A stretch of 64,000 nt of DNA from an uncultured Gaiellaceae bacterium (lineage in GTDB: Bacteria; Actinomycetota; Thermoleophilia; Gaiellales; Gaiellaceae): NCBI GenBank assembly GCA_963820695.1, contig CAWGAP010000001.1:147087-211086 (forward strand), in the 5' to 3' direction. Within the stretch, counting starts at the first letter, position 1. Every line of letters starts with the position of its first letter. Under the pieces are notes generated by a model. It was not told the DNA's origin. It saw only the letters and a program-made list of their open reading frames with translations, and searched no databases. A program made the position numbers and the translations under genes. Shown here piece by piece: positions 3,729 through 56,160 of this stretch.

Positions 3729-4765
3729 CCTTCGAGCCCGCGGCGCCGGTCCTCTTCCTGCAGCGCCGTGGTGAAGTCGGCGAGCCCGCCCTGGAGCACC
3801 TTCTCCAGGTTCAGCGTCACCTTGACGCGGTGGTCGGTGGCGCGGCTGTCCGGGTAGTTGTAGGTGCGGATCTTCTCGGCCCGCTCACCGGAGCCGATCT
3901 GCGACCTGCGTGTCTCGGAGAGCTCGGCCTGCTGGCGCTCGCGCTCGGCCTCGTAGATGCGCGCGCGCAGCACCCGCATCGCCTTCGCCTTGTTCTGGAG
4001 CTGCGACTTCTCGTCCTGCATCGCGACGACGATTCCGGTCGGCAGGTGCGTGATCCGGACGGCCGAGTCGGTCGTGTTGACGCTCTGGCCGCCGGGACCG
4101 GTCGAGCGGTAGACGTCGATCTTGAGATCGTTCTCGTCCACGTCGACCTCGATCTCCTCGACCTCGGGCATGACGGCCGCGGTCGCGGTCGACGTGTGGA
4201 TCCGGCCCTGGGACTCGGTCGCGGGAACACGCTGGACGCGGTGGGTGCCGCCCTCGTACTTGAACACGGAGTAGGCACCGCCGCCCTTGACCGCGAAGAC
4301 GACCTCCTTGAAGCCGCCGCTCTCGCTCTCGTTCGCCGAGAGCAGCTCGGTCTTGAAGCCGCGGCTCTCGGCGTAGCGCGTGAGCATCCGCAGCACGTCG
4401 CCGGCCCAGATCGCCGCCTCGTCGCCGCCGACGCCCTGCCGGATCTCGACGATCACGTCCTTGTCGTCGGCGGGATCCTTCTCGACGAGGGCGAGCTTCA
4501 GCTCCTCCTCGAGCTCGGCCAGGCGCTGCTCCGACTCGGCGACGAGCTCCTTGAGCTCGGGGTCGGCGTTGGACGCGTCGACGTCCTCCCGCATCGCCCG
4601 CCACTCCTGGGCGAGCTTGTACGCAGGCTCCAGCTCCTTCAGGCGGCGGCCGATCTCGGCGGCCTCCCGCTGGTCGTTGTAGACCGAAGGGTCGGCCATG
4701 CGCTCCTGCAGCTCGCTGTAGTTGCGCTCGAGATCGTCGATCAGCTTCTCGATCGGTGTCGCCAT
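3725..4765 (-). CDS. prfA: Peptide chain release factor 1
   Basis: 346 aa with the GGQ motif (GPGGQSVN) and the RF1-type P-A-T anticodon tripeptide (RVPATESQGRIHTS). Confidence 0.95.
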   Translation of the reverse strand: MATPIEKLIDDLERNYSELQERMADPSVYNDQREAAEIGRRLKELEPAYKLAQEWRAMREDVDASNADPELKELVAESEQRLAELEEELKLALVEKDPADDKDVIVEIRQGVGGDEAAIWAGDVLRMLTRYAESRGFKTELLSANESESGGFKEVVFAVKGGGAYSVFKYEGGTHRVQRVPATESQGRIHTSTATAAVMPEVEEIEVDVDENDLKIDVYRSTGPGGQSVNTTDSAVRITHLPTGIVVAMQDEKSQLQNKAKAMRVLRARIYEAERERQQAELSETRRSQIGSGERAEKIRTYNYPDSRATDHRVKVTLNLEKVLQGGLADFTTALQEEDRRRGLEG

Positions 4766-4774
4766 GATTGGACG

Positions 4775-5230
4775 ATGCTAGCCACGCCCATCCGCATCCG
4801 GCGCGCGGCCGCCGCGGATTCCGTGCCGGCCGCGGCCGTCGTCCGGGCGGTCTACGAGGAGTACGGCTTCACCTGGGACGAACGCGGCTACCACGCCGAC
4901 CTGCGTGACGTCGAGACGGCGTATGCGGCGTTCTTCGTCGCCGAGCTCGACGGCCGGATCGTCGGCACTGCCGGGCTCTCCGAGCGCGGTTCGCTCGAGC
5001 GCCTCTACGTTCTGCCCGATGCGCGGGGAGCGGGCGCCGGCTCGGCGCTCCTCGCGGCCGTCGCCGAGGAAGCGCGCCGCCGCGGCCATGACCGGCTCGA
5101 GATCTGGTCGGACAAGCGCTTCGAGGATGCACACCGGCTCTACCGGCGCGAGGGCGCGCGGGTCGTCGGCGAGCGCGTCCACGACGATCCCGACTCGAGC
5201 CACGAGTGGGGACTGGTGCTCGACCTTTAG
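4775..5230 (+). CDS. GNAT family N-acetyltransferase
   Basis: 151 aa, starting at the ATG at 4775 inside ORF 3530..5230. Upstream of that ATG the ORF is antisense to prfA. The acetyl-CoA loop is LYVLPDARGAGAGSALL. The start is only 9 nt from the divergent prfA start, so the exact start is uncertain. Confidence 0.75.
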   Translation: MLATPIRIRRAAAADSVPAAAVVRAVYEEYGFTWDERGYHADLRDVETAYAAFFVAELDGRIVGTAGLSERGSLERLYVLPDARGAGAGSALLAAVAEEARRRGHDRLEIWSDKRFEDAHRLYRREGARVVGERVHDDPDSSHEWGLVLDL

Positions 5231-47544: not shown

Positions 47545-48555
47545 TCCAGGAGGCGCTCGCCGACCTGCTCGAGGGCAAGCAGCTCGGCCGCCCCCGCTGC
47601 GCGCGAGGTGATGGGCGAGATCATGCGCGGCGACGCGACGCCGGCCCAGATCGGCGGCTTCCTCGTCGCGTTCCGACTGAAGGGCGAGACCGCCGACGAG
47701 ATCGCGGGCTGCGCGGAGGCGATGCGCGACCACGTCTTGCCCGTGCACGCCCGGCGCGACGACCTGGTCGACACCGCGGGCACCGGCGGCGACGGCGCCA
47801 GCACGATCAACATCTCCACCGCCGCCGCGATCGTCGCCGCCGCCGCGGGCGCGGGCGTCGCGAAGCACGGGAACCGCGCCGTCTCGTCCGCGTCCGGCTC
47901 GGCGGACGTCCTCGAGGCGCTCGGCTTCCGGCTCGAGCAGCCGCCGGAGCGGATCGCGCAGTCGATCGACGAGCTCGGCTTCGGCTTCATGTTCGCGCCC
48001 TCGCACCACCCGGCGATGCGGCACGCCGCACCCGTCCGGCGCGAGCTTGCGGCGCGTACCGTGTTCAACGTGCTCGGCCCGCTCACGAATCCCGCCGGCG
48101 CGCGTGCCCAGGTGATCGGCGTCTATGCCAAGCCGCTCGTGCGCACGATCGCGGACGTGCTGGCACAGCTCGGAGCGCGGCGCGCCTTCGTCGTCCACGG
48201 CGCCTTCGGGATCGACGAGCTCTCGCCGGCCGGGCCGAACGACGTCTGCGAGGTCGTCGACGGCGATGTGCGTGCGCGCGTGATCGATCCGCTCGAGCTC
48301 GGCGTCGACCGCTGCGACCCGGAGGAGCTGCGCGGCGGCTCCCCGGCCGAGAACGCGCAGGCGATCCGCGACGTCTTCGCGGGCGCGGACGGCGGCCGTC
48401 GCGACGCGATCCTGCTCAACGCGGCCGGCGCCATTGCGGCGGCCGGGCACGCCGAGGATCTCCGCGACGGGCTCGAGCTCGCCCGGACGGCCGTCGACTC
48501 GGGCGCCGCCGCCGCGCGGCTCGACGAGCTGGCGAGGTTCACGAATGCGATTTAG
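47541..48555 (+). CDS. trpD: Anthranilate phosphoribosyltransferase, one frameshift as assembled
   Basis: GTG 47541 (a GTGA overlap with trpG) gives [16 protein letters not shown]. The frame shifts at about 47595 into ORF 47608..48555, which has [18 protein letters not shown] and NVLGPLTNP. Confidence 0.88.
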
Positions 48556-49704
48556 GGACGCGCTCGCCGGCCCCGGCCTCGGTGCGATCGCCGAGATCAA
48601 GCGGCGCTCGCCCTCGCTCGGCGACATCCGCCCGGACGCCGACCCGGCACGGATCGCGCGCGAGTACGCGGCCGCCGGCGCCGCCGCGGTCTCCGTCCTC
48701 GTCGACGAGCGCTTCGGCGGCAGCTGGGACGACCTTCGCGCCGCGCGCGCGAGCACGGGCGTGCCGCTGCTCGCCAAGGGCTTCTTCTCCAGCGAGGAGC
48801 ACCTCCGCACGGCGAAGGAGGCCGGCGCCGACGCCGTCCTGCTGCTGCTCCGCGACCTCGACGACGAGCAGGTGCGCGGGCTGATGGCGGTGGCCGACGA
48901 CCTCGGCCTCGACACGCTCGTCGAGGCGCACGACGCCGACGAGCTCGAGCGGGCCGTGCTCGATCGGCGCGCGCGTGATCGGCGTCAACGCCCGCGATCT
49001 CGCCACCTTCGAGATCGACCGCGCCGCGCAGCTCGCGCTCGTCGCCCGGATCCCGGCCGACCGGATCGCGATCGCCGAGAGCGGGATCAGCACACGCGCG
49101 CAGGGCGCCGCGGCGGAGCTGGCGGGGGCCGACGCGATCCTCGTCGGCTCGACGCTGATGCAGGCGCCCGACCCGGCCGCCAAGCTGCGCGAGCTGCTGC
49201 GACGGCCGCTCGTCAAGGTCTGCGGCCTGACCCGCGAGGAGGACGTGGCCGTCGCAGCCGAGGCCGGCGCCGACCTGGCGGGCTTCGTCCTCGCTCCCGA
49301 GAGCCCGCGTGCCGCCGACCGACGTCCTTCCCGTCCCGGACGAGCTGCTCGCCGTCGCCGTCTGGGTCGGCGAGGCGGGCACGAGCGGCGCGCCGGTCGA
49401 CCAGGTCCACGAGCGCGAGGAGGGCCGCATTCGCGGCCGGAACGGCGTGCTGCTCCGTGAGGGCGAGCAGGTCGCACGCCTGCTCGACCTCCCCTGGCAG
49501 GAGGAGGATCCCGGCCACTGGGATCGCGCGGCCGCGGAGCCGGGACGCGTCGTGCTCGCCGGCAGGCTCGCCGCCGACAACGTCGCCGAGGCGATCCGCA
49601 GGGTCCAGCCGTGGGCGGTCGACGCCGCCTCGCGGCTGGAGTCGGCGCCGGGGATCAAGGATCCGGCGAAGGTTCGCGCCTACGTCGAGGCGGCCCGGTC
49701 GTGA
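48545..49704 (+). CDS. trpC: Fused indole-3-glycerol-phosphate synthase / phosphoribosylanthranilate isomerase, two frameshifts as assembled
   Basis: The TrpC part has [11 protein letters not shown] and LVEAHD, shifts frame at about 48965, then continues IGVNARDL and IAESGI. The TrpF part has VKVCGLT and FVLAPESPR, shifts frame at about 49300, then continues VVLAGRL and [18 protein letters not shown]. Confidence 0.85.
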
Positions 49705-50826
49705 CCGGAGCACGTACGGCGCCTACGGCGGCCGCTACGTCCCCGAGACGCTGATCCCGGCACTCGACGAGCTCACGGGCGCGTGGGAGGAGGCGCTCGC
49801 GGACGAGAGCTTCCGCGCCGAGCTGGACGAGCTGGCGCGGAACTACGCGGGCCGCCCGACGCCGCTGACGCGCGCGGAGCGCTTCGCACCCGACAAGCGC
49901 CTCTATCTCAAGCGCGAGGATCTGCTCCACACGGGCGCCCACAAGCTGAACAACGCGCTCGGGCAGGCGGTGCTCGCGCGCCGGCTCGGCAAGCGGCGGA
50001 TCGTCGCCGAGACGGGCGCCGGCCAGCACGGCGTCGCCACCGCGACCGTCTGCGCACGCTTCGGGCTCGACTGCGTCGTCTACATGGGCGCCGAGGACAT
50101 GCGCCGGCAGAAGCCGAACGTCGAGCGGATGGGCCTGCTCGGCGCCGAGGTGCGGCCCGGTCGAGTTCGGCACGAAGACGCTTGAAGGAGGCGACGAGCG
50201 AGGCGATCCGGGACTGGATCACGAACGTCGAGACGACGCACTACCTGATCGGCTCCTGCGTCGGCCCCGCGCCCTACCCGGCGATCGTGCGCGAGCTGCA
50301 GGCCGTGATCGGACGCGAGTCGCGCGCCCAGATGCTCGAGGCGGAGGGCCGGCTGCCCGGACGCCGTGATCGCATGCGTCGGCGGCGGCTCGAACGCGAT
50401 CGGGATGTTCGCCGGCTTCCTCGACGACGCCGCGGTCGAGATCGTCGGCGTCGAGGCCGCCGGCGCCGCGAGCCTCGGCACCGGACGCGCAGGCGTGCTC
50501 CACGGCTCACGCTCCTCCGTGCTCGCCGACGAGGACGGGCAGATCGCGGACGCGCACTCGATCTCGGCCGGTCTCGACTATCCCGGCGTCGGCCCCGAGC
50601 ACGCGCACCTGCGCGACACGGGCCGTGCCGCGCTACGTCGGCACGACCGACGACGAGGCGCTGGACGCGTTCCGCCGGCTGACCCGCACCGAGGGAATCA
50701 TCCCGGCGCTCGAGCCTTCGCACGCACTCGCCCGGGTCGACGACCTCGACGCCGAGCTGATCCTCGTCTGCCTCTCCGGCCGCGGCGACAAGGACCTCGC
50801 CGAGGTTCTGGCCCGCTGCCGAATGA
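49701..50826 (+). CDS. trpB: Tryptophan synthase beta chain, about 6 frameshifts as assembled
   Basis: The conserved blocks sit in alternating frames: [75 protein letters not shown] and [12 protein letters not shown]. Junctions are near 49712, 50159, 50183, 50358, 50622 and probably 50810. The expected stop is TGA 50824-50826, overlapping the trpA ATG. Confidence 0.85.
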
Positions 50827-51556
50827 GCAAGACGCTCGCGATCTACCTGATGTCCGGGCCGGACACGCCCGAGCTGGCGGAGGCGGCCGTCGAGGGCGGA
50901 GCCGACCTCGTCGAGCTCGGCTTCCCCTTCTCCGACCCGCTCGCCGACGGCCCGGTGATCCGGCGCGCCGCCGAGAAGGCGCTCGCGCAGGGGATGCGGA
51001 CGCAGGCGTGTCTCGCGTGCCTCGCCGCGGTCCGGCAGCGGGTCGAGGTGCCGCTCGTGCCGATGACCTACTCGTCACTGCTCGAGGCCTACGGCTGGGA
51101 CCGCTTCGCCGCGGACGCGCGATCGGCCGGCGCCACCAGCCTGATCGTCGCCGACCTCCCGGCCGGCGACCGACCCAGCCTCCGGCGCGTCCAGCTCGTG
51201 GCGCCGACCTCGACCGACGAGCGCCTGCGACTCGCGGCCGGAGCAGACGGACGGCTGGCTCTACCTCGTCACCGTGACCGGCACGACGGGCGCTCGCTCG
51301 GGCCTGTCTGCGTCGCTCGCGGGGCTCGCCGAGCGCGCACGGGCCGCCGCACCGGGCGTCGCGCTCTACGCCGGCTTCGGCATTTCGACGCCCGCGGACG
51401 CCCGTGCCGCCGCCGAGCTCACCGACGGCGTCGTCGTCGGCTCCCGCGCGCTCGAAGCCGCCGACGGACGGACCGGCCGCGCTGCGCGCCTACGTGCGCT
51501 CGCTCCGGGACGCGCTCGACGCGCCTAGGACGGCGGGCCTAACCCGAATCGGCTAG
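50823..51556 (+). CDS. trpA: Tryptophan synthase alpha chain, two frameshifts as assembled
   Basis: It has [18 protein letters not shown] and APTSTDERL, shifts frame at about 51240, then continues [15 protein letters not shown] and YAGFGIS, shifts frame at about 51470, and ends [15 protein letters not shown]. The end is uncertain; candidate stop codons end at 51528, 51542 and 51556. Confidence 0.8.
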
Positions 51557-51595
51557 TTGTGCCACGCCCCGCTGGGGACGGTCACAACGCTGTTT
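51556..51595 (+). terminator. Candidate trp operon terminator (interrupted hairpin)
   Basis: gttgtg...cccc-gct-gggg...cacaac, followed by gctgttt. The structure is weak, with an internal loop. Confidence 0.3.
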
Positions 51596-51641
51596 CGGGG
51601 ATTCAGTCGCGCTCAACTCTGGTGAAAACTAGCGAAGTCGT

Positions 51642-51663
51642 GCATGTGCAGGACTGCACATGC
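51642..51663. promoter_or_regulatory. Perfect 10-bp inverted repeat (gcatgtgcag-ga-ctgcacatgc), candidate operator of the repeat-peptide gene
   Basis: The arms are 51642-51651 and 51654-51663 with a 2-nt spacer. It ends 12 nt before the AAGGGGGA Shine-Dalgarno (51676-51683) and 25 nt before ATG 51689. Confidence 0.5.
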
Positions 51664-51688
51664 TCATCTCGCCGCAAGGGGGACAACC

Positions 51689-51997
51689 ATGGGGAAGATC
51701 GAGCCGCTGGCACCGTCCAAGCGTGTCCGGATCGTGCTCTGCTCGGCAGTGTTCGCGATCGCCGCGATCGTGCCTGGCGCAGGCTTCGCAGCCGACTGGT
51801 CGTCGGGCGTCAAGTCGCCGGTCGCCGACTGGTCGTCCGGAAAGACATCGCCGACGGCCGACTGGTCGTCGGGCAAGCGCGCACCGACGGCGGACTGGTC
51901 GTCCGGCAAGCGGACACCGAGCGCAGATTGGTCGTCGGCAAGGATCGCTCCGAAGGCCGACTGGAGCTCTCGCTATCGGGCGAGCGCGCTCCGCTAG
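51689..51997 (+). CDS. Small secreted basic protein made of six 11-aa ADWSSGK-type repeats
   Basis: 102 aa from ATG 51689, which has a strong Shine-Dalgarno 6 nt upstream. The signal peptide is MGKIEPLAPSKRVRIVLCSAVFAIAAIVPGAGFA. The mature part is ADWSSGVKSPV ADWSSGKTSPT ADWSSGKRAPT ADWSSGKRTPS ADWSSARIAPK ADWSSRYRASALR. Third codon positions are nearly all G/C. Confidence 0.65.
   Translation: MGKIEPLAPSKRVRIVLCSAVFAIAAIVPGAGFAADWSSGVKSPVADWSSGKTSPTADWSSGKRAPTADWSSGKRTPSADWSSARIAPKADWSSRYRASALR
51791..51976 (+). repeat. 33-bp tandem repeat, about 5.6 units (gccgactggtcgtcgggcaag...)
   Basis: Units start at 51791, 51824, 51857, 51890, 51923 and 51956. Confidence 0.9.
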
Positions 51998-52042
51998 AGG
52001 CGAAACCCGGATGGGGGAGCTCGACTCCCCGAATCGAAGTAT

Positions 52043-52080
52043 GCGGCGGTACCTCGATACGGGGTACCGCCGCCTCGTTC
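52043..52080 (+). terminator. Candidate terminator after the repeat-peptide gene
   Basis: A perfect 11-bp GC-rich stem, gcggcggtacc / ggtaccgccgc (52043-52053 and 52063-52073), has a 9-nt loop and is followed by ctcgttcc. A smaller hairpin, ggggag-ctcga-ctcccc, precedes it at 52014-52030. Confidence 0.45.
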
Positions 52081-52116
52081 CGCTGCCGATTGGCAGTAGG
52101 GGCCCGTGCGGCGCGA

Positions 52117-54385
52117 ATGGCCCGTTACCTTGACGAGGTGCGGCAGCAGATGAGCGTTCCAGCGGTGGCGGAGCAGGCAGGCTGGCAGTCCAGGCGGGTG
52201 CGCCGACTGCCGGCTTCTGCGTCCGCCTACGCGGCGGTGATCGAGGTGCTGGCGCTGGTCGCCGCCGCGGCAGCTCTGAGCGAAGGGAGTTCCAGTCGGG
52301 CTACGAGTGGTGGAGAGCGGCGCTGCTGCTGCCGCTCGCGGCCGTCGCGCCGATGTTCCGCGTCGCCGTCGGCCGCAACCACAGCCTGCACGCAGCGCCT
52401 GCGTTCGTCGTCGCCGGTGCGCTCGTGCTCCCGCCGGCGCTGCTCGTCCCGCTCGTGCTCGCGATGCGTCATCCCGCAGTGGATCCGCGACCGCTACGCG
52501 TGGTACATCGGGCTCTTCAACATCGGCAACTACATGCTGAGCATGCTGGCGGCGTGGCTCGCGGCCGACCTCGTTCGTACCGACAGCGACCTCGGCTTCG
52601 CCGCCGCCGGGCTCGCCGCGACCGTCGTGTTCGTCGGCGGTCAACCACGTGCTCCTGGCCGTGATGCTGCGGCTCGGGCGCGGACACAGCTTCCGTCAGA
52701 GCGGGCTCTTCTCGGCGACCGGTCTCACGATCGAGCTCGTCCTGGCAGGGCTCGGCATCGCGATCGGCGCGTTCACGCTCGTTCAACCCCTGGATCCTGC
52801 CGGTCCTGATCGCACCGCTCGCGCTCGCTCACCGTTCGCTCTCGACGGTGGCGCTGCTGCGCGAGAGCGAGGAGCGCTTCCGGACGATGTTCGCCGCGGC
52901 TCCGACGGCGATCATGCTCTTCGACCGGACGGGCGCATCCTCTCCGCCAACCGCTCGGCCGAGACGATGTTCGGCTACTCCGAGCAGGAGCTGATGGGCA
53001 GGCGGCCGACGCAGCTTCCGCCACCCGGACGACGTCGACGCCGGGGATCAGGCGTTCGCCGAGGTCCTGATCGCGGCGAGCGCGACTCCTACCGCCGCGA
53101 GGCGGTCGTTCGTGACCGGCATCGGGCTCGACGCGTCGTCGCGCATCTCGCGACGGCCCTCGTCCGCGACGCGGACGGGAAGCCCGGCTACCTGATCGGG
53201 ATGGCCGAGGACGTGACCGAGCAGCGCCAGCTCGAGGAGCAGCTGCGGCAGAGCCAGAAGCTCGAGGCGATCGGCCGCCTCGCCGGCGGCGTCGCCCACG
53301 ACTTCAACAACATGCTGACCGCGATCGGCGGCTACACGGCGCTGGCCCTCGAGCATGCCGAGACCGGCTCGACGCTGCGCGGCGACCTCGACGAGATCCG
53401 CAAGGCGACCGACCGGGCCGCGCTGCTGACGCGGCAGCTGCTCGCGTTCAGCCGCAAGCAGGTGCTGATGCCGGAGCTGCTGAATCTGAACGGCGTCGTG
53501 CTCGAGCTCGAGTCGATGCTCCGCCCGCTGATCGGCGAGGACGTCGCCCTGACGACGCAGCTCGATCCGGCACTCGGGCCGATCGAGGCCGACCCGGGCC
53601 AGCTGCACCAGGTCGTGATGAACCTCGTCGTCAACGCCCGCGACGCGATGCCGAGCGGCGGCGCGATCACGATCGAGACGGCGAACTCCGACGTGGAGGA
53701 GAACGACGACGCGATCGAGCCCGGCCGCTACGTCACGCTGACCGTTCGCGACACCGGCCAGGGGATCGACGAACCGACGCTCCGCCAGATCTTCGAGCCG
53801 TTCTTCACCACGAAGGACGCCGGCAAGGGCACGGGCCTCGGCCTCGCCACCGTCTACGGGATCGTGAAGCAGAGCGGCGGCTACGTGGCGGTCGACAGCG
53901 AGCTCGGCGTCGGCTCCGCCTTCACGATCTACCTGCGCCGCGCGGACGGCGTCGTGCAGCAGCCGGTCGAGCCGGATCCGCGCGCCCGTCGTCGAGGCAG
54001 CGCCGGCGCCCGTGCCGCGACGGCGTCGACGCGGGTGCTCGTCGTCGAGGACGAGGACGTGATCCGCGGCCTCGTCGACCAGGTCCTGCGGGGCGAGGGC
54101 TACGAAGTGCTGCTCGCGGCGGACGGCGACGAGGCGATCGAGCTGGCCGGCAGCAACCACGTCGACGTGCTGCTCACCGACCTGACGATGCCGGGGATCG
54201 GCGGCCACGAGCTGGCCGACAGGCTGCGCGCGAGCACGCCCGAGCTGAAGGTGATGTTCATGTCGGGCTTCGCCGAGGGCAACGACTTCTCGGCCAGCTC
54301 CCTGCCGCCGGCGACCGCGTTCCTGGAGAAGCCGTTCACGTTCACGATGCTGAGCGAGCGGATGCGTGAGCTGATCGCCACCTAG
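52117..54385 (+). CDS. Hybrid sensor histidine kinase (multi-TM sensor, PAS, HisKA, HATPase_c, REC). The sensor and PAS part carry at least 7 frameshifts.
   Basis: The intact core is in ORF 52649..54385. H-box: [16 protein letters not shown] boxes: [30 protein letters not shown]: VLVVEDEDV...[12 protein letters not shown]...MSGF...EKPF. The upstream TM and PAS segments are spread over three frames: [24 protein letters not shown] / [29 protein letters not shown] / [16 protein letters not shown] / [47 protein letters not shown] / [19 protein letters not shown] / [12 protein letters not shown]. The start, ATG 52117, is tentative. Confidence 0.8.
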
Positions 54386-54492: not shown

Positions 54493-56160
54493 ATGCAGAA
54501 GAAGCTTCTGCCCACGCTCGCCGCCACGGTCGGAACCCTGATCGGGGCAAGCCTGCTCGTCGGCTCTGCGTTCGCGAGCTCCGCCTCGAGCGCGGGCCCG
54601 GCCAAGGCCGGCGGCTCGGAGGCGAAGCGCGGCGGCACGCTGCGCATCAACCTCTCCACCACCGACTTCGAGTACCTCGACCCGGCGCTCGCCTACGAGG
54701 CGCCGCGGGCTGGCAGGTGCTCTACATGACGAACCTGATGCTGCTGAACTACCCGGACAAGCCGGCGCCGGAGGGCTCGCGGCTCGTGCCCGACGCGGCG
54801 GCCGGGTTCCCGCGCGTGTCGCGCGACGGGCGGACGTACACGTTCACGATCAAGTCGGGCCTGCGCTTCAGCGACGGCTCGGCGGTGACCGCGGCCGCGT
54901 TCAAGCGCGCGTTCGAGCGGGCGGCGAGCCAGCAGCAGGGCTCTCCGGCGATCGCGTTCATCCACGACGTGGTCGGCGCCGACGAGCGGAACGAGGGCAA
55001 GGCCGGCTCCGTCGCGGGCGTCACCGCGCAAGGGCCAGGTCCTGACGATCAGGCTGAAGCGGGCGAACCCGACCTTCCTCGCCGAGATCGCGATGCCGTT
55101 CTTCTCGGCCGTGAAGCCGAGCATGGCGATCGACAGCAAGGGGCTCAACGTCTATCCCTCCGCCGGCCCGTACCGGATCGCCAGCCGGGCGATCGGCAGC
55201 CAGGTCGTGCTCGAGCGGAACCGCTTCTACAAGGGCAACCGCCCCGCGAACGCCGACCGGATCGTGATCTCGACCAACACCGACGTGAACCAGAGCCTGC
55301 TCCAGGTGCGCGCCGGCCAGATCGACTACGACCAGTTCGGCCTGCCGCCGACGGCGCACGACGACCTCTCGCGCCAGTACGGCGTCAAGAAGGGCGGCAG
55401 CGGCCGCTACTTCGTCAACACCGGCATCAACACGACGTACCTGGCGCTGAACGCGTCGCGGCCCGCCTTCGGGAAGGTCAACCTGCGCAAGGCGGTCAAC
55501 CATGCGATCGACCGGCCGTCGATGCTCCGCGTCGCCGGCAAGTACGCCGGGAAGCGGACCGATCAGATCCTGCCGCCGAACATGCAGGGCTTCCGCGACG
55601 CGGCGCTCTATCCGATCAAGGGTGCGAATCCCGTCCGTGGCCGTGCGCTCGCGAACGGGGCGAAGGACGACATCACGCTCCTCTACACGACGAGCCCGAC
55701 CTCCGTCGCCCGCGCCCAGATCCTCAAGTACAACCTCGAGCAGATCGGGCTCAGCGTCACGTTGAAGCCGCAGCCGTTCGCCGTCGCGATCCGCACGGCC
55801 GGCACCCGCGGCTCCGACTTCGACATGTTCCTGATCGCCTGGTTCGCCGACTACCCCGACCCGTTCGACTTCATCAACGTGCTGCTCGACGGGCAGAACA
55901 TCCAGGACGCGAACAACTCGAACTACTCGTACCTGAACAGCCCCAAGTACAACAAGCTGATGACCGACGCGGCGAAGCTCTCGGGCGCAGCCCGCTACGA
56001 CGCGTACGGGCGGCTCGACGTCGACATGATGAAGAACGCCGCTCCGTGGGCGCCGCTCTCGAACGGCAACGTTCGCGAGTTCGTCTCGTCGCGCGTCACG
56101 AACTACCTGTTCCACCCGGTCTACGGCGGCGCGATCATGAACGCGCTCGCGATCAAGTAG
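54493..56160 (+). CDS. ABC transporter substrate-binding protein (family 5, peptide/nickel type), two frameshifts as assembled
   Basis: It opens with a signal peptide (MQKKLLPTLAATVGTLIGASLLVGSAFA) and GGTLRINLSTTDFEYLDPALAY. After a shift at about 54703 it continues WQVLYMTNLMLLNYPDK...YTFTIKSGLRFSDG. After a second shift at about 55028 it continues KGQVLTIRLKRANPTFLAEIAMPFFSAV into ORF 55093..56160. Confidence 0.82.

Follow-up and report, generated by a model that had tools for sequence, protein, structure and literature searches.

In Firmicutes, the agrD-agrC, comC-comD and comX-comP cassettes place the gene for a small exported peptide immediately 5' of the gene for a histidine kinase with a multi-pass sensor, and the ComX peptide carries an essential tryptophan. 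Fungal alpha-factor precursors such as yeast MFalpha1 are built from a signal peptide and tandem copies of a Trp-containing peptide, variable in number and set apart by basic spacers, while Phr-type propeptides, taken up by Opp, are made as Sec pre-peptides. Features of each of these systems recur in the gene described here. It lies in a 64,000-nucleotide stretch of contig CAWGAP010000001.1 from an uncultured Gaiellaceae bacterium (assembly GCA_963820695.1; the whole stretch is referred to below as the window), directly behind the tryptophan operon and ahead of a hybrid sensor histidine kinase gene, and it encodes a small protein with a predicted Sec-type signal peptide followed by six repeats around an A-D-W-S-S core. 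The Gaiellaceae are abundant, almost uncultured soil actinobacteria and, to our knowledge, practically nothing is known about their signalling.

Short ORFs are also found in association with tryptophan genes. As in the present case, trpL, rtpLP and tnaC are Trp-codon-rich and linked to such genes. By location and description, our gene can further be likened to that of TrpM (SCO2038, trpX), the product of a small ORF of the Streptomyces coelicolor trpCXBA cluster that modulates tryptophan biosynthesis and development (PMC5036795); both are lineage-specific small ORFs of no known family within an actinobacterial trp cluster.

Our analysis defines a previously undescribed small-protein family, so far found only in Gaiellaceae. 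Based on sequence comparison, and with less than even confidence, we propose that its members are disordered repeat peptides exported through Sec, which would serve as extracytoplasmic ligands or partners of the adjacent kinase and whose output would be tied to the expression of the trp operon and to the supply of tryptophan.

A small repeat-peptide family of the Gaiellaceae

The small repeat-peptide ORF with a strong Shine-Dalgarno sequence that had been reported in a preliminary description of this DNA was verified in all its parts, namely the reading frame, the ribosome-binding motif and the six 11-residue units (Table 1). In the aligned related loci, CAAGGGG(G)A is kept 5-10 nt ahead of the start codon. 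Each unit of the window peptide consists of A-D-W-S-S followed by a basic, Pro-containing linker of six residues, and the last one ends with the tail RYRASALR, after which the frame stops. The six [A]DWSS cores are spaced by exactly 11 residues (Asp codons at 51794, 51827, 51860, 51893, 51926 and 51959); at the nucleotide level, Tandem Repeats Finder detects a 33-nt period (51791-51938) and a 66-nt one that reaches 51964. When translated in six frames, the window, which has a G+C content of 71%, contains six matches to [DE]W[ST]S in the peptide and one more elsewhere in the other 64 kb.

Among 5.8 billion proteins searched, about 100 homologue clusters came up, which stem from metagenome-derived genomes, are without exception named 'hypothetical' and bear Thermoleophilia and Gaiellaceae as the only organism labels. 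Additionally, a profile search of 1.84 billion cluster representatives recovered about 20 true members, all small and with a common N-terminus; larger apparent matches of this search were discarded as unrelated low-complexity repeat proteins. When one genome per species was scanned, the gene was present in 19 species representatives, 17 of them labelled Gaiellaceae and two only 'Actinomycetes' or 'Actinomycetota'. The homologues measure 69, 80, 91 or 102 residues, that is, their lengths rise in steps of 11, and therefore whole repeat units have been gained and lost. The repeat number, for which a comparison of relatives had been suggested at the outset, varies from 2 to 10 cores among 100 unbroken members, with a core-to-core spacing of 11 residues in 82% and otherwise of 10 or 5.

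Across the family, the core reads A-[DE]-W-[ST]-S and the linkers are basic, Pro-containing and 5-6 residues long. Two sub-groups can be told apart by their C-termini, one ending in ...ADWSS-R[YF][RK]AS[AS]LR and the other stopping right behind the last core (...ADW[ST]S), and the smallest predicted mature products comprise 14 residues (ADWTSIVPSADWTS). The database homologues P0091, P0093, P0098 and P0101, as well as locus L023, represent the repeat region in frameshifted form.

Judging by its pattern of conservation, the ORF is a genuine protein-coding gene under purifying selection. In the 21 loci compared, the nine codons of an N-terminal motif, SKRVRIVLC, vary at all nine third positions and at no second position, and the two first-position changes are synonymous. 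The serines of ADWSS are encoded by both TCN and AGC, a switching to be expected only where selection acts on the amino acid itself. All 21 related loci keep the sense frame open, whereas the antisense PDDQSA ORF (51664-51909), which had been kept as a possible alternative, is open in 14 of them. Together with the codon pattern, this identifies the sense frame as the selected one, and the antisense ORF was rejected as the expressed frame.

The statement that the peptide belongs to no recognised family also stood, as no Pfam or NCBIfam score reaches its cut-off: the best match in Pfam-A is Mucin-like, with 12.8 bits against a cut-off of 28.7, and the best in NCBIfam scores 12.2 bits against 277. 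A full-text search of the literature for the ADWSS core and its variants gave unrelated matches only. In the AlphaFold2 model obtained with the family alignment, a single helix spans residues 11-27 and everything after residue 30 has a pLDDT below 50; the mature part is predicted to be disordered. We considered a pentapeptide-repeat fold (A[D/N]LXX), one unit of which the core resembles, but rejected it in view of the prevailing 11-residue spacing, the missing Pfam match and the disordered model.

Ser, Thr, Pro, Gly and Ala abound in the mature part, which is cationic. Such a composition, with Trp and Lys/Arg in a chain predicted to be disordered, speaks for an explanation that does without signalling, and which we consider somewhat unlikely: the product may be a small exported or envelope-associated disordered repeat protein, e.g. 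a cationic, Trp-anchored coat, spacer or protectant, with no tie to the kinase or to tryptophan and with a gene order that is merely inherited. A labile copy number, as seen in many surface proteins, would suit this explanation as well. However, the mature part is very small for such a role (14-90 residues) and the protein shows no anchoring signal, be it LPXTG, a suitably placed lipobox or a known wall-binding domain, and the cell-wall-binding function suggested in the preliminary description stays speculative. The bearing of the gene order on this alternative is taken up below.

The N-terminal motif and predicted export

In the window peptide, a basic SKRVR stretch is followed by the hydrophobic segment IVLCSAVFAIAAIV and then by P-G-A-G-F-A ahead of the first A-D-W. 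Position -1 is occupied by A, G or S and position -3 by G or A in all 100 members, and position -6 is Pro in 97 of them. With its basic n-region, h-region, helix breaker and small residues at -3 and -1, the N-terminus has the sequence characteristics of a Sec/signal peptidase I pre-protein. Because the residues at -6, -3 and -1 follow the rules of signal peptidase I, we infer export and cleavage before A35; the classical Sec signal peptide cleaved after GFA that had been predicted earlier fits these rules across the 100 members. Two other export routes were discarded. The only Cys, the invariant C18 after I-V-L, sits at the start and not at the end of the hydrophobic stretch, which does not suit a lipoprotein processed by signal peptidase II, and a twin-arginine motif does not fit by reading of the sequence.

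SKRVRIVLC occupies codons 10-18 (51716-51742) at the boundary of the n- and h-regions and is invariant at the protein level in every locus, unlike the rest of the hydrophobic region, which is free to vary. This strict invariance exceeds the ordinary needs of a signal peptide and may reflect a dedicated targeting route or a partner-binding segment. In this regard, the YSIRK-G/S signal peptides and the KxYKxGKxW ones of serine-rich repeat glycoproteins likewise carry a strict motif at the n/h boundary, ahead of a Ser-rich repetitive passenger. Here, however, the motif is a different one, the passenger is tiny and no accessory Sec genes lie nearby, and the resemblance is to be taken as an analogy only.

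The invariance of SKRVRIVLC at a juxtamembrane position, with all silent sites varying, suggests a specific partner. It could thus also belong to an uncleaved protein that spans the membrane once, from an internal N-terminus to external repeats, and that modulates the kinase within the membrane as MgrB or SafA do on PhoQ. The direct vicinity of a polytopic membrane kinase gene would be in line with this notion, as would the fact that helix 11-27 is the sole confidently structured part of the model. Nevertheless, we hold such a modulator to be unlikely, given that only some 14 residues of hydrophobic core precede Pro-29 and that 97-100% of the members show the -6/-3/-1 pattern (P, G, A/G/S) expected of a cleaved signal. 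Moreover, the repeat part is under selection too and must do something as well.

The N-terminus also bears on the idea of a modified peptide. A repeated short core, an invariant Trp with Lys nearby, a conserved N-terminal segment and a variable number of cores, as in other multi-core precursors, would be compatible with the precursor of a ribosomally synthesized and post-translationally modified peptide (RiPP), matured by Trp-Lys cross-linking (streptide, darobactin) or Trp prenylation (ComX) through tailoring enzymes encoded elsewhere. Yet no radical-SAM, YcaO, lanthipeptide, P450 or prenyltransferase gene was found among the genes called within ±10 kb in six loci of three genomes (L001-L006). 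A Sec-type signal, which is not a RiPP leader, would take the peptide out of reach of tailoring enzymes in the cytoplasm, and Lys is not invariant in the linkers, many of which lack it: they can read GVAKPT, GVTSPT or IVPS, or be missing altogether, as in AEWSSAEWSS. A RiPP precursor is therefore highly improbable, and the streptide-like product envisaged in the preliminary description, which, like darobactin and the triceptides, would call for a fixed Trp-Lys or aromatic-X-X cross-link motif and a radical-SAM/SPASM maturase, gained no support.

Gene order and RNA elements around the peptide gene

The features of the locus are collected in Table 1.

Table 1. Features of the peptide locus, in window coordinates
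Feature	Position	Strand	Remarks
trpA	50823 to about 51530	+	Last enzyme gene of trpE-G-D-C/F-B-A; frameshifted; end approximate through indels
Conserved blocks after trpA, CCCGAATCGGC ... ACGCnGTTTCGGGGATTCAG	51543..51599	+	Possible long imperfect hairpin; contains the hairpin 51556-51588
5'-leader stem-loop (the 'perfect palindrome'), best read as RNA	51642-51651 / 51654-51663	+	Perfect 10+10 inverted repeat
Shine-Dalgarno sequence AAGGGGGA	51676-51683	+	5 nt 5' of the ATG; direct reading
Peptide ORF	ATG 51689 to TAG 51995-51997	+	102 codons, read in the window sequence
Predicted signal peptide MGKIEPLAPSKRVRIVLCSAVFAIAAIVPGAGFA	51689..51790	+	Codons 1-34; contains SKRVRIVLC
Predicted mature repeat region	51791..51997	+	Six units of 33 nt / 11 residues
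3' hairpin H1 (GGGGAG / CUCCCC)	52013..52030	+	In nearly all loci, by prediction and alignment
3' hairpin H2	52043..52073	+	13-14 bp, G+C-rich; inverted repeat, folds, covariation test
Hybrid sensor kinase	52150..54385	+	Frameshifted; the L002 kinase matches three frames (tblastn)
SBP_bac_5 (OppA-like peptide-binding protein)	54493..56160	+	Orphan, optional neighbour; 90% identity to the L002 protein (L002 12712-14367; tblastn)

The order trpB-trpA-peptide gene-kinase (about 740 residues) is found in every related locus that extends far enough, so that the kinase neighbour, whose conservation had been singled out for checking, is indeed a constant one. A full trpE-G-D-C/F-B-A operon lies upstream of the peptide gene wherever ±10 kb were taken. 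In no locus that covers it is the trpA-peptide-kinase trio interrupted, whereas the trpB|trpA junction and the region behind the kinase do gain and lose genes. Between trpB and trpA, locus L013 has an additional SAM-methyltransferase-like ORF (about 4340-5140, + strand) and locus L016 a gene for a 211-residue membrane protein on the opposite strand (4515-5150, - strand); trpB-trpA gaps of 600-800 nt also occur in L014, L018, L020, L022 and L023. Junctions rearranged on both sides of a trio that itself stays together tell against the envelope protein with a merely inherited gene order. In favour of that alternative, the carriers all belong to one bacterial family, so that synteny is weak evidence, and the intergenic regions overall diverge at roughly the pace of trpA third codon positions or synonymous sites, only the conserved blocks and the hairpins being constrained.

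The intact kinase orthologue of locus L002 begins with a sensor of some 230 residues that matches nothing in Pfam and contains about seven hydrophobic segments; PAS, HisKA, HATPase_c and REC domains come after it. No other protein segment of the neighbourhood evolves as fast as this sensor, which shows 59-88% identity as compared to 91-96% for TrpB. The two most divergent sensor relatives looked up (P0139 and P0143) sit in the same trpA-peptide-kinase gene order; accordingly, no sensor outside this synteny came up among these two matches, and many other matches were truncated products. A further relative of the sensor, P0132 (46% identity over 78% of the sensor), is fused to GGDEF in place of a kinase, and because of this fusion the sensor module may be used with other outputs. 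Behind the kinase, the SBP_bac_5 gene is present in about 60% of the loci and cleanly absent in eight, where DUF179 comes directly. It has no permease genes beside it, and its product might be a co-sensor for the kinase.

Several genes of the window are split over two or three frames with respect to intact orthologues (window 48545-54376), namely trpC/F (48545-49704), trpB (49709-50816), trpA (50823-51465), which matches the intact L002 TrpA in two frames with 90-92% identity (tblastn), and the hybrid kinase gene (52150-54376). Because a whole essential operon is broken, indel errors in a long-read assembly seem a more plausible source of these frame breaks than pseudogene formation. The peptide ORF itself is intact in spite of its broken neighbours.

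The perfect palindrome ahead of the peptide gene is present as first described and is conserved in related genomes, but its reading as a DNA operator is disfavoured. By number it is unremarkable alone, since the window contains 8 perfect 10+10 repeats against 3.45 expected. The stem-loop, however, is predicted in 22/22 loci folded. In an 8-pair structure, 94.1% of the alignment cells pair, five pairs show double compensatory changes, and the covariation score is reached by none of 500 shuffles; on the + strand, ten of the cells hold a G·U or U·G pair. In view of the covariation and of the G·U pairs, which would mismatch in DNA and on the opposite strand, the palindrome is best read as a stem-loop formed by the peptide mRNA within its 5' leader, and not as a protein-binding site on the DNA.

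Hairpins flank the gene on both sides, as had been claimed; of those tested for covariation, the downstream H2 is supported by it. In H2, 95.6% of the cells pair, position 3 changes from GC to CG in five genomes, G·U pairs are many, and 0/500 shuffles reach the score. Its tail is not U-rich and the terminator scan made no call on it; H2 is possibly a U-tract-poor terminator or a 3' stabiliser. The upstream hairpin is 73% complementary. The longer hairpin that contains it forms in most loci in single-sequence folds, with about 80% of the cells pairing, but its covariation is no better than that of shuffles and RNAalifold gives no consensus structure. The proposal of a monocistronic, separately regulated transcript gained no support: our scan found no sigma-70-type promoter and the gene always lies directly behind trpA.

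Other sequence elements of these regions were recorded. Upstream of the 5' hairpin, ACGCnGTTTCGGGGATTCAG and T..TC.A...T......GTC stand out as conserved blocks. Around the ORF, near-palindromes of the CGAA(T/G)TCG type (CCCGAATCGG, GCGAAGTCG and CCCGAATCGA) occur at 51543-51552, 51633-51640 and 52028-52037; the motif CCCGAATCGG is not enriched in the window, with 13 matches against 10.8 expected. Before the start of the kinase gene (52079-52160), a conserved CCGATTGTCA, a variable hairpin that is absent in L013 and L015, and TTACCTTGACGAGGTGCGGCAGCAGATG were observed.

The tryptophan-operon link had been absent from the preliminary description: about 9% of the residues of the mature part are Trp, and the gene abuts trpA. 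It raises the question of a cis-acting tryptophan sensor, in which translation through the 2-10 UGG codons, or a TnaC-like nascent chain responding to free Trp, would gauge the supply of Trp-tRNA or Trp and so set transcript stability or read-through, with consequences for the downstream kinase or the trp mRNA. The constant location immediately 3' of trpA, a mean Trp content of 9.3% in the mature part of the 100 unbroken members with a Trp invariant in every unit, and conserved hairpins on both sides, a strong one of them between ORF and kinase, would agree with such a device, and in some loci there is little space for a classical leader before trpE (in L004, trpE starts 54 nt past its neighbour). 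We nevertheless consider this sensor very unlikely. The residues around Trp and the complete signal peptide are conserved at the protein level, and a codon-counting leader needs neither. An attenuator was rejected, as the folds between ORF and kinase show independent hairpins only, with no mutually exclusive terminator and antiterminator pairing. H2 has no U-tract, and a search of Rfam 15 with both strands of 51400-52300 gave 18.2 bits at best, against a gathering score of 56.8, and no T-box.

Three further pairings were inspected, the first two of which likewise count against such a sensor. A mini-hairpin per repeat, CCGAC-UGGUC-GUCGG, which would present the UGG codon in its loop, is not under selection, since AGC-Ser, GAG-Glu and ACG-Thr variants break the stem while the amino acids stay. 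A putative long-range stem, CUGCCG/CGGCAG (GCUGCCG/CGGCAGC), over the ribosome-binding region and start of the kinase gene folds in many loci but, by inspection, fails in L002 and L017, where the sequences differ. Lastly, a pairing that would sequester the Shine-Dalgarno sequence (CCCC...CGGCGAG / CUCGCCG...GGGG) appears in some folds, with a partial co-change from G-C to U-A in L007, L013 and L015, and is inconsistent in the window and in L010, L012 and L017.

A candidate ligand-kinase pair in the light of known systems

The findings presented here allow us to outline how an exported ligand of the adjacent kinase might operate. A Sec-type signal peptide carrying SKRVRIVLC would be removed after (G/A)-x-(A/G/S), releasing a disordered, cationic and Trp-rich chain of 2-10 A-(D/E)-W-(S/T)-S copies with their linkers. 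Outside the membrane, this chain or its fragments would act on the downstream hybrid histidine kinase as ligand or co-sensor, the OppA-like binding protein possibly taking part in kinase sensing where it is present. The output of the peptide would depend on transcription of the trp operon and on the supply of tryptophan, a dependence that is expected because the gene lies directly behind trpA and one residue in eleven is Trp. On the mRNA, the peptide segment would be bracketed by the conserved 5' stem-loop and the 3' stem-loops. Both the kinase interaction and the tryptophan dependence are what we infer from this arrangement. As far as can be judged from the predicted products, a small exported-peptide gene adjoins that of a polytopic membrane kinase, which is the architecture of a pheromone-kinase cassette, and among the three roles suggested in the preliminary description that of a kinase ligand is the best fitting one in this context.

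Several points weigh against an exported kinase ligand. All genomes come from one family, and the fixed gene order may be a matter of inheritance rather than function. Typical pheromones diverge fast, but the ADWSS core does not vary between species. The peptide gene has no neighbour that encodes a processing protease, an exporter or a cognate response regulator, the predicted external loops of the kinase are short, and the SBP_bac_5 gene is missing in 40% of the loci. Furthermore, cleavage of the signal peptide is itself a prediction, and an invariant n-region would be equally compatible with a membrane anchor that is retained.

If the kinase is the partner of the peptide, a Sec-dependent signal made in tandem copies would join the few peptide-sensing systems listed for actinobacteria, a function could be assigned to an orphan membrane sensor domain, and signalling would be linked to tryptophan biosynthesis. 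In a bolder version, which we regard as distinctly unlikely, the gene is the tail of the trp operon and encodes a Trp-pentapeptide precursor. This precursor would be made in quantity only when the trp genes are transcribed and there is tryptophan to spare, and by way of the hybrid kinase the repeats would signal this costly state to the producing cell or to cells nearby. If this were true, it would provide prokaryotes with a first equivalent of the alpha-factor precursors and their tandem copies, and amino-acid biosynthesis would be coupled directly to extracellular peptide signalling. Leaving function aside, SKRVRIVLC, A-[DE]-W-[ST]-S in 2-10 copies and two covarying RNA hairpins make up a clean new family, whose members annotation pipelines currently call 'hypothetical' or overlook.

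When set against the Firmicutes cassettes, the locus differs in several respects. The peptide has a Sec-type signal, no dedicated exporter or processing enzyme (AgrB, ComAB, ComQ) is encoded nearby, and the core, which does not differ between species, occurs in tandem copies. As a PAS-containing hybrid, the kinase belongs to the HisKA family and not to HPK10; no response regulator or target operon is adjacent, and the host is a deep-branching actinobacterium. The alpha-factor precursors, for their part, are eukaryotic, processed by Kex2/Ste13 and sensed through a G-protein-coupled receptor, and they have no sequence similarity to the peptide. Their units are cut apart, while here the linker before each core has P-x and not a fixed dibasic site. 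As regards the Phr-type propeptides, an OppA-family protein is encoded nearby in about 60% of our loci, but neither a gene for a Rap/RNPP-type cytoplasmic receptor nor permease genes accompany that of the binding protein, and the latter is dispensable in 40% of the genomes.

The tryptophan-linked ORFs differ from the peptide gene in position and make-up. TrpM is encoded between trpC and trpB, in contrast to the peptide gene, which follows trpA, and no signal peptide or repeats are mentioned for TrpM (PMC5036795). With regard to trpL, rtpLP and tnaC, the peptide ORF lies downstream of the operon, is 50-124 codons long, includes a predicted signal peptide and is conserved at the protein level, and no terminator/antiterminator arrangement was found for it. 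The peptide gene is a demonstrated member of none of these systems; in its architecture it resembles an exported small peptide with a sensor kinase as its putative partner.

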